Source of the DNA: a virus
DNA: 39,031 nt
Virus genome (UHGV): UHGV-0112814
Reading direction: 5' to 3' (one strand)
Under the pieces are notes generated by a model. It ran no database searches, was not told where the DNA came from, and was given only the letters and a program-made list of their open reading frames with translations. Position 1 is the first letter of the stretch. Each line of letters starts with the position of its first letter. Below are positions 1-39,031 of the stretch, in pieces. A program made the translations under genes and the position numbers.

Positions 1-40
1 CATGGTTCGCGTCAGATCGTTGACAGCCGCACTCCATGAC

Positions 41-85
41 GGGTAAAAAGTGGATAAAATAATTTTACCCACCGGATTTTTACCC
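41..85 (+). repeat. Cluster of GGGTAAAA-type motifs (two direct at 41..49 and 52..60, two inverted ttttaccc at 63..70 and 78..85) directly upstream of the int start codon
   Basis: Same motif family as at the other window end; typical of integrase arm-type binding sites. Confidence 0.5.
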
Positions 86-1467
86 ATGCTCACCGTTAAG
101 CAGATTGAAGCAGCAAAGCCGAAAGAAAAACCATACCGCCTTCTCGATGGTAATGGCCTGTACCTTTATGTCCCTGTATCAGGGAAAAAGGTATGGCAGC
201 TTCGCTACAAGATTGACGGTAAGGAGAAAATCCTGACCGTAGGAAAATATCCGCTAATGACTTTGCAGGAAGCAAGAGATAAAGCATGGACCGCGAGGAA
301 AGACATCTCGGTTGGCATCGATCCGGTAAAAGCGAAAAAGGCTTCGTCTAACAACAATTCCTTTAGTGCCATTTACAAGGAATGGTACGAGCACAAGAAG
401 CAAGTCTGGTCAGTAGGCTATGCAACTGAACTTGCCAAAATGTTTGATGACGACATTTTACCCATCATCGGCGGTCTTGAGATTCAGGATATTGAGCCGA
501 TGCAACTGCTGGAAGTAATCCGCAGATTTGAAGATCGCGGTGCAATGGAGCGAGCAAATAAAGCCCGCAGAAGATGCGGCGAGGTTTTCCGTTACGCTAT
601 TGTCACCGGCAGGGCTAAATATAACCCGGCACCTGACCTTGCAGACGCCATGAAAGGATACCGCAAGAAGAACTTCCCGTTTCTTCCTGCAGACCAGATC
701 CCGGCATTCAACAAAGCACTGGCAACATTTTCAGGAAGTATCGTATCGCTCATTGCGACCAAAGTTTTACGCTACACAGCCCTAAGAACGAAAGAGCTTC
801 GCTCCATGCAATGGAAGAACGTCGATTTTGAAAACAGGATTATCACCATCGACGCCAGTGTGATGAAGGGACGCAAAATTCATGTGGTTCCTATGTCAGA
901 CCGTTTCTTCCTGCAGACCAGATCCCGGCATTCAACAAAGCACTGGCAACATTTTCAGGAAGTATCGTATCGCTCATTGCGACCAAAGTTTTACGCTACA
1001 CAGCCCTAAGAACGAAAGAGCTTCGCTCCATGCAATGGAAGAACGTCGATTTTGAAAACAGGATTATCACCATCGACGCCAGTGTGATGAAGGGACGCAA
1101 AATTCATGTGGTTCCTATGTCAGACCAGGTGGTTGAACTTCTCACTACGCTAAGCTCAATCACCAAACCAGTATCAGAGTTTGTTTTTGCCGGGCGCAAC
1201 GATAAGAAGAAGCCAATCTGCGAGAACGCGGTACTGCTTGTGATCAAACAAATCGGCTATGAGGGTCTGGAAAGCGGTCACGGATTCAGGCATGAATTCA
1301 GCACGATTATGAACGAGCACGAATGGCCTGCTGATGCTATTGAAGTGCAACTGGCACATGCCAACGGCGGATCTGTGCGCGGGATTTACAACCATGCTCA
1401 GTATCTCGATAAGCGCAGAGAAATGATGCAGTGGTGGGCGGACTGGCTTGATGGGAAGGCGGGCTAA
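86..1467 (+). pseudogene. int: P4/IntS-type tyrosine integrase, reading frame broken by an internal 224-bp tandem duplication (N-terminal fragment ends at stop 1007-1009; C-terminal fragment resumes as ORF 1030..1467)
   Basis: ORF 50..1009 and ORF 1030..1467 share the peptide MQWKNVDFENRIITIDASVMKGRKIHVVPMSD; the second ORF continues into a tyrosine-recombinase C-terminus (HGFRHEF ... GIYNHAQY). ATG at 86 (MLTVKQIEAAKP) preferred over the track start at 50. 224 is not a multiple of 3, so the frame shifts. Confidence 0.85.
677..1124 (+). repeat. Perfect direct tandem duplication, 2 x 224 bp (copy 1 677..900, copy 2 901..1124), with 2-bp CC microhomology at the junction
   Basis: The string ccgtttcttcctgcagaccagatcccggc ... 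gttcctatgtcaga occurs twice back to back, identical by eye. Confidence 0.9.
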
Positions 1468-12677: not shown

Positions 12678-12846
12678 CTTCTTCCGCCTTAGCCACTTTT
12701 TGCTTCGTTGCGGTTTCTTCAGGAGTTTTTACCCAACCTTTTTTCAGGTGAGATTTAACTTCTTCGTCATCAACAATGACGTAATCGACAGCAAACTGAC
12801 CACAGGTGATCATGTTGCCCGGCTTATAGAGCATTGTTCGTGCCAT
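12658..12846 (-). CDS. Small hypothetical protein between coat and gp4
   Basis: ATG at 12846 preceded by gggagaa RBS, directly after the post-coat terminator hairpin. Confidence 0.4.
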   Translation of the reverse strand: MARTMLYKPGNMITCGQFAVDYVIVDDEEVKSHLKKGWVKTPEETATKQKVAKAEEDGKNEG

Positions 12847-38737: not shown

Positions 38738-38780
38738 TGCCTGATTTGCAGGTTCGATTCCCTATTCGGAGATAGCACTC

Positions 38781-38981
38781 ATGCAACACGAACTACAACC
38801 TGATTCACTGGTTGATTTGAAATTCATCATGGCTGATACTGGCTTCGGTAAGACCTTCATCTATGACCGGATTAAGTCCGGCGACCTGCCTAAAGCCAAA
38901 GTTATCCACGGACGAGCAAGATGGTTATATCGTGACCATTGTGAATTCAAAAATAAGCTCTTAAGCCGCGCCAATGGGTAA
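38781..38981 (+). CDS. xis: AlpA-family excisionase / DNA-binding protein
   Basis: 66 aa; TGFGKTFIYDRIKSGDLPKAKVIHGRARWLYRD fits the AlpA/Xis HTH pattern; last gene before the int end of the element. Confidence 0.6.
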   Translation: MQHELQPDSLVDLKFIMADTGFGKTFIYDRIKSGDLPKAKVIHGRARWLYRDHCEFKNKLLSRANG

Positions 38982-38998
38982 AATAGCGGGTAAAATAT
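38977..38998 (+). repeat. Two direct GGGTAAAATA repeats with 12-bp period, immediately after xis (candidate Int arm-type sites)
   Basis: gggtaaaatagc-gggtaaaatatt; the first overlaps the xis stop codon. Confidence 0.5.
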
Positions 38999-39031
38999 TT
39001 TTCACATCTAAAAAACACCATTCCAATCAAT

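Follow-up and report, generated by a model that had tools for sequence, protein, structure and literature searches.

What are the short repeats at the two ends of this phage genome for, and what do they say about where the element begins and ends? The window, i.e., the whole 39,031-nt stretch of UHGV virus genome UHGV-0112814 analyzed here, carries copies of GGGTAAAA in direct and inverted orientation before int at its left end and in direct orientation at the end of xis on its right, and a preliminary description had taken these for integrase arm-type sites flanking an att core just outside the window. Gene order and BLAST hits place the window among the temperate P22-like phages (Lederbergvirus) of the Sf6/HK620/CUS-3 group, as a mosaic genome that has no end-to-end match in the records searched (phage and E. 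coli genome collections). We find that the repeats are very probably (a probability of about 0.93, judged from the sequence and its homologues) arm-type binding sites of an IntS-type tyrosine integrase and belong to an argW-specific recombination module. This module is common to KplE1/CPS-53, HK620, Sf6 and CUS-3, and the window shares with it the integrase type, a recombination directionality factor (RDF) as last gene, a promoter inside the arm, and two direct P-arm repeats after the RDF gene (Table 1).

Exact matches to GGGTAAAA number seven on both strands of the whole window against 0.84 expected, a count that none of 100 shuffles reaches, and five of the seven fall in the 85 nt before int and the ~50 nt after xis. 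With one mismatch allowed, the word is found 37 times against 26.5 expected, i.e., without window-wide enrichment, so that the signal resides in the terminal cluster: five exact copies crowd into 141 terminal nt, where the window-wide rate predicts ~0.003 (Poisson P ~2e-15). The four copies originally counted before int turn out to be three exact ones and a fourth, GGATAAAA, that carries one mismatch. Both direct copies reported after xis, at 38977..38998, are present, at slightly different coordinates (38976-38995), and "just after xis" holds only in part, as the first of them runs over the final Gly codon and the TAA stop codon of the gene. The exact copies at 456 and 12727 are probably there by chance. 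The HK620 record annotates the int-internal copy at 456-463 as an attP repeat; we considered it as a functional site and rejected it, since it is missing from K-12 intS and is neither conserved nor co-varying in relatives.

Table 1 Positions in the window of the predicted att arms, the flanking genes and related features
Feature	Position	Strand	Remarks
RDF (TorI) sites TGGTTCGC and CAGATCGT	3-10, 13-20	+	KplE1 I4 and I5 by coordinate mapping; abut the -35 box
int promoter PintS	-35 TTGACA 20-25; -10 TAAAAA 44-49	+	18-nt spacer; matches the published KplE1 boxes
Putative P' arm-type Int site a, GGGTAAAA	41-48	+	Overlaps the -10 box; apparent equivalent of KplE1 P'1
Putative P' arm-type Int site b, GGATAAAA	52-59	+	One mismatch; 11 nt after site a
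Putative P' arm-type Int site c, GGGTAAAA	63-70	-	Placed from sequence and relatives
Putative P' arm-type Int site d, GGGTAAAA	78-85	-	Last base adjoins the int ATG (86)
int, IntS-type tyrosine integrase, disrupted	86-1467	+	Reads 86-1009 (307 aa); rest of catalytic domain out of frame, 1030-1467
Perfect 224-nt tandem duplication inside int	677-900 and 901-1124	+	Not part of the att site
TTGCAGGTTCGATTCC, exact 16-nt copy of the argW T-arm	38746-38761	+	Upstream of xis; not the recombination core
xis, RDF, TorI (HkaC)	38781-38981	+	Last gene; transcribed towards the att site
P arm, two putative direct arm-type Int sites GGGTAAAA	38976-38983, 38988-38995	+	12 nt apart
All exact copies of GGGTAAAA	41-48 (+), 63-70 (-), 78-85 (-), 456-463 (-), 12727-12734 (-), 38976-38983 (+), 38988-38995 (+)		

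The arm-type reading is borne out at both ends by comparison with the E. coli K-12 prophage KplE1/CPS-53. On the left, positions 1-85 are 84/85 identical to its attL P' arm, which lies between argW and intS, and on the right, positions 38958-39031 are 73/74 identical to its attR P arm, which follows torI in K-12. In KplE1 attL the IntS arm-type P' sites all share TAAA and have been mutated and tested, P'1 shares bases with the intS -10 box, and five TorI sites are arranged in two blocks, with I4 and I5 abutting the -35 box (Panis et al. 2010, PMC2951348). We placed I4 and I5 by mapping the published KplE1 coordinates (I3;4;5 block, 2464472-2464499; intS ATG, 2464565; TorI site cores GTTCG/GATCG/GTCCG; PMC2951348) onto the window, where GTTCG stands at 5-9 and GATCG at 15-19; by the same mapping, I3 and the I1/I2 block are outside the window. 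Repeats of the GTTCG type are kept in an alignment of 18 genera.

The left cluster is an int promoter/operator as well as an att arm. Positions 3-49 differ from K-12 at a single base, so that the window has the promoter-in-P'-arm architecture of the KplE1 module, whose intS promoter has been described as -35 TTGACA and -10 TAaAAa with an experimentally determined transcription start (PMC2951348). A generic promoter scan of the window did not call PintS, because its -10 box is without the final T. In KplE1, PintS is repressed ~5-fold by IntS and ~5-fold by TorI; repression by IntS is attributed to the P' site at the -10 box, which is not separable genetically from promoter activity, and excision requires a narrow range of IntS concentration (PMC2951348).

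At the right end, the Xis protein is identical at 66/66 residues to TorI of K-12 (b4501; PDB 1Z4H), and the P arm corresponds to an attP repeat in the HK620 annotation. Excision of KplE1 has been reconstituted in vitro with a 220-bp attL, extending from the argW T-arm into intS, and a 135-bp attR (PMC3509656); the attR substrate opens with CTCTTAAGCCGCGCCAATGG (window 38958-38977), directly before both P-arm repeats (PMC3509656).

Where, then, is the crossover core? A search of the window for CTGCAGGGGACACCA, allowing up to three mismatches, finds no match, and tRNA and Rfam scans of the window find nothing; the 16-bp core CTGCAGGGGACACCAT, which is the argW 3' end and marks both junctions in the KplE1/HK620/Sf6 module, is thus at neither junction within the window. 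It probably lies outside the given sequence rather than being missing from the element. In relatives, i.e., the HK620 attP and E. coli prophages, the core is found 90 nt to the left of the position-1 equivalent and 23 nt to the right of the position-39031 equivalent, as expected from the claim that it would be just outside. On E. coli chromosomes, the argW tRNA-Arg(CCU) gene ends 90 nt before the position-1 equivalent, with the 3' end ...TTGCAGGTTCGATTCCTGCAGGGGACACCA, and on the right the core begins 24 nt after the 39031 equivalent and is followed by dsdC. This is the duplicated 3' tRNA piece that the preliminary description had proposed to look for beyond xis, here a 16-bp repeat beyond torI in E. 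coli; K-12 annotation gives a 15-nt tRNA fragment beyond torI as pawZ. The tRNA gene proposed for the int side is likewise found in homologues: the annotation of strain CX12 places tRNA-Arg(CCT) upstream of intS, and this tRNA adjoins int in 21 of the 23 other-genus relatives, the other two showing no tRNA, one of them with too little upstream DNA. HK620, whose record is circular, has ~114 nt that join the right end (...CCAATCAAT) to the left end (CATGGTTCGC...), and the window is without those bases. With int leading and xis closing the gene order, and neither end crossed by a phage gene, the view that the window is close to a whole prophage also holds. We infer from the homologues that the window is an integrated or excisable copy with the core just outside both ends, and that its integration site is argW.

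In the layout that we propose, the circular phage would read xis, a P arm with two direct sites, ~58 nt, the 16-bp core, ~115 nt, the P' arm and int, where the ~115 nt between core and P' arm would carry five TorI sites and the P' arm would consist of two direct and two inverted sites. With the core being the 3' end of tRNA-Arg CCU, integration would leave the P' arm and int in attL beside argW, and xis and the P arm in attR. The N-terminal Arm-DNA-bind_3 domain of Int would bind all six arm sites, of which the P arm has two and the P' arm four, while the C-terminal domains would bind the crossover core; bends induced in the arms by IHF would, together with Int, give the intasome, and TorI bound to the GTTCG-type sites of the P' arm would drive the reaction in the direction of excision. 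The P' sites would sit on the int promoter, the first overlapping the -10 box and the last abutting the ATG, so that Int would repress its own gene through the same sites, and TorI would repress PintS via the two sites next to the -35 box.

Comparison across the Enterobacterales, for which one genome per species was scanned, returns IntS relatives in many members of the order, and 23 from other genera were examined. Neither the -35 TTGACA nor the first GGGTAAA varies among 18 aligned sequences of different genera, and the other P' sites keep their position and orientation, the position of site b reading GGGTAAA or GAGTAAA; the 12-nt spacer that separates the first site from the -35 box, by contrast, is free to vary. 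GGGTAAA is present on both arms in the window, K-12, HK620 and Klebsiella phage Chronis. A sister integrase class has the same geometry with GGGCATA in place of GGGTAAA (L019, L027-L030 and L034, upstream of int); over their full length its integrases share ~58-72% identity with IntS, and in the first 100 residues they share 45-56% with the window Int. The complete phages g341c of Salmonella (L095, 640-905) and phiEt88 of Erwinia (L096, 640-905) have GGGCATA both after xis and before int, and their P arms consist of two direct GGGCATA copies at the same 12-nt spacing. The arm word thus changes on both arms together, as expected if one protein reads all of the sites.

The arm-binding domain of the GGGCATA class shows consistent, class-specific changes at four positions: N23G, Q38R, T51V and the loss of K54. 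It is possible, although we hold it at somewhat less than even odds, that the argW-targeting IntS family is split into two mutually orthogonal arm codes, GGGTAAA and GGGCATA, with matched changes in PF13356 and with core, tRNA target and site geometry unchanged; as the two motif classes are two clades, the match between motif and N-domain is suggestive only and may partly reflect shared ancestry. If true, orthogonal codes would let two related elements share argW in tandem without forming hybrid intasomes, and they would constitute a natural recognition-code swap for a widespread, structurally little-studied arm-binding domain. Three loci (L088, L089 and L092), which have GGGTAAA after xis and GGGCATA across the core, were considered as a counter-example to co-variation and rejected, since downstream they have no int, only an aqpZ-like host gene. 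In L089 (IMGVR_UViG_2548876974_000004), read from ~420 nt before to 300 nt after its GGGCATATTGTGGGCAT match, the attR of a GGGTAAA-class prophage (xis, the P arm and the core CTGCAGGGGACGCCA) abuts a remnant P' arm of a GGGCATA-class element, which indicates successive or tandem occupancy of argW and not a circular or hybrid attP.

Might the left cluster be mainly a nucleic-acid structure, a hairpin or cruciform in the int leader that controls translation or terminates read-through from xis, rather than a docking site for a protein? Sites a and d would pair, as would b and c. The RNA of positions 36-100 does fold into a nested hairpin of -15.6 kcal/mol (z = -2.28), a value matched by 7 of 200 shuffles, and relatives retain the inverted order of the sites, also in the GGGCATA class, where the switch of motif would resemble compensatory change. 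Against this, the outer 5' arm of the hairpin shares bases with the -10 box, so that it precedes the mapped transcription start (PMC2951348) and is not part of the PintS mRNA; the copies on the P arm are direct and partnerless, with no folding excess (z = 0.0), yet have the same motif and switch with the P' arm; Xenorhabdus relatives have three sites only; and the published repression by IntS is assigned to the P' site at the -10 box (PMC2951348). We consider a primarily structural role very improbable, with odds of a few in a hundred.

A regulator other than the integrase, such as TorI or the phage repressor, might instead use the repeats as operators that flank the att core by coincidence, and we give this the same slim chance as the hairpin. 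The left cluster does overlap a promoter that TorI represses (PMC2951348), but the TorI sites are a different word (GTTCG/GATCG/GTCCG) situated upstream of the -35 box, their mutation removes TorI repression of PintS, and KplE1 keeps the repeats despite having no CI module (PMC2951348). The motif moreover switches along with the integrase class, although the excisionase also differs between the classes, so that co-variation alone does not exclude an excisionase. That an A/T-rich word came to cluster by chance in promoter-like intergenic DNA is the least credible account of all, since five exact copies crowd into the terminal 141 nt, keep position, orientation and spacing in 18 genera and lie in stretches near-identical to functional KplE1 att arms, even if the one-mismatch word is barely enriched and the exact copies at 456 and 12727 look random.

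Arm-type binding by an IntS-type integrase is the reading that we retain, and in this copy the gene for that integrase is damaged. The N-terminal part is in place, with Arm-DNA-bind_3 (PF13356) at residues 2-86 (E = 1.2e-25) and Phage_int_M present, while Phage_integrase (PF00589) is represented in the 307-aa product only by profile positions 2-75 of 172, i.e., the catalytic domain is not intact. The tandem duplication shifts the frame after residue 272 and has a 2-nt CC microhomology at its boundaries; with one copy removed, int encodes a 385-aa protein that is identical to K-12 IntS at 381 of 385 residues, and thus of the IntS type. The duplication junction is absent from the phage, E. coli genome, IMG/VR and JGI metagenome collections, and the duplication may be a recent mutation or an assembly artefact. 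If a recent mutation, it could lock the prophage in place, reversibly by recombination between the copies. We infer that the frameshifted Int can still bind arm sites and is unable to catalyze recombination; with int frameshifted, the sites may currently serve no recombination in this copy. Directly downstream of int, at 1755-2804, is an acyltransferase (PF01757) gene whose product is 33% identical to the Sf6 O-antigen acetylase Oac, likely a lysogenic-conversion gene with a specificity unlike that of Sf6 Oac.

The boundaries of such elements are complicated by a second piece of tRNA sequence, the 16-nt copy of the argW T-arm upstream of xis (Table 1), the T-arm being the tRNA segment that immediately precedes the recombination core on its 5' side. 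The xis ATG lies 19 nt beyond the end of the copy and 18 nt beyond the end of its GGTTCGATTCCC stretch; the copy contains GGTTCG, resembling a TorI site, and HK620 annotation describes the region as a cII-activated promoter. The copy is shared with K-12 and HK620 but not with Klebsiella phage Chronis or Salmonella phage g341c; Erwinia phage phiEt88 has a 13-nt version, AGGTTCGATTCCC, at the same distance from the xis start. An alignment-based locus search with this element returned only 100%-identical TorI loci, and a pattern scan that excluded the E. coli type gave only unrelated tRNA-like matches.

The CUS-3 record (CP000711; L003 1-16, L097 893-908) labels this T-arm 16-mer "attL core" and "attR core". 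By using the T-arm repeat as core, the record stops before xis and omits both xis and the P arm; as KplE1, HK620 and further E. coli prophages indicate, the true attR core is ~330 nt to the right of the label, and the right boundary of CUS-3 appears to be mis-set. Many IMG/VR provirus contigs (TorI loci L098-L177) end exactly 3 nt past the torI stop, and automated provirus boundaries thus commonly cut off the P arm and the core. For the window, mainly the annotation is settled: it is a P22-like element of the Sf6/HK620/CUS-3 type, a prophage with int and xis as its limits. The practical consequence is for boundary calling, as the true 16-bp core would lie just beyond both ends and the decoy T-arm copy has already misled the CUS-3 record; the underlying biology of the arm sites is nothing new.

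The closest known system is KplE1, which has the same -35 and -10 boxes, the same TorI sites I4 and I5 and the same order, int to xis, as the window. At 10 kb KplE1 is a remnant; the window, by contrast, spans a P22-like genome at full length, including the regions for head, tail, lysis and immunity; the window int has the 224-nt frameshifting duplication, and the core, I1-I3 and the tRNA lie beyond the window. Binding, autorepression and in vitro recombination have been shown for KplE1 (PMC2951348, PMC3509656), and a later survey counts KplE1 among the few fully characterized heterobivalent systems. HK620 (GenBank AF335538) has four annotated attP repeats, equivalent to window 40-61, 61-86, 454-464 and 38975-38997, with the core CTGCAGGGGACACCAT between attP repeats and an int-proximal promoter also marked. 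The HK620 record reportedly goes back to Clark et al. 2001, Sf6 is said to be covered by records X59553/AF547987, and detailed footprints of the KplE1 att sites are said to be given by Panis, Mejean and Ansaldi 2007 (JBC) and Panis 2010 (Virology). With the repeats annotated in 2001 for HK620 and the biochemistry of KplE1 dating from 2007-2010, the finding is already known: the GGGTAAAA arm sites are ordinary ones, the observation made on the window is confirmed, and its interpretation is supported.

The GGGCATA class (g341c / vB_SemP_Emek, phiEt88 and prophages of Pantoea, Kluyvera and Xenorhabdus) uses the same tRNA target and core, and has the geometry of the window, two sites after xis plus two direct and one or two inverted sites over the int promoter; several of its members carry a GTTACC-type repeat at the positions that TorI sites occupy in the GGGTAAA class. 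More distantly, lambda attP (P1, P2, P'1-P'3) likewise has a repeated word unlike the core on both arms in mixed orientation, and the N-domain of the heterobivalent tyrosine recombinase binds these arm sites, helped by IHF and the RDF (PMC2951348). The window and its relatives conform to this paradigm, in that a word unlike the core is present on both arms and changes with the integrase. The lambda word is a different one, and the N-domain of the IntS system is PF13356, of the P4/IntS type; its RDF sites are on the int-proximal P' arm (attL), whereas those of lambda are on the P arm. Unlike in lambda, int is autoregulated from its own promoter inside the att site, and transcription of xis and int is uncoupled (PMC2951348). 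Satellite phage P4 has an Int of the same broad type that binds close to its own promoter in the att region and represses it, and its RDF, Vis, also lowers int expression (PMC2951348). Vis has been proposed to act on mRNA, whereas TorI acts on DNA, and the attachment tRNA and the repeat word differ.
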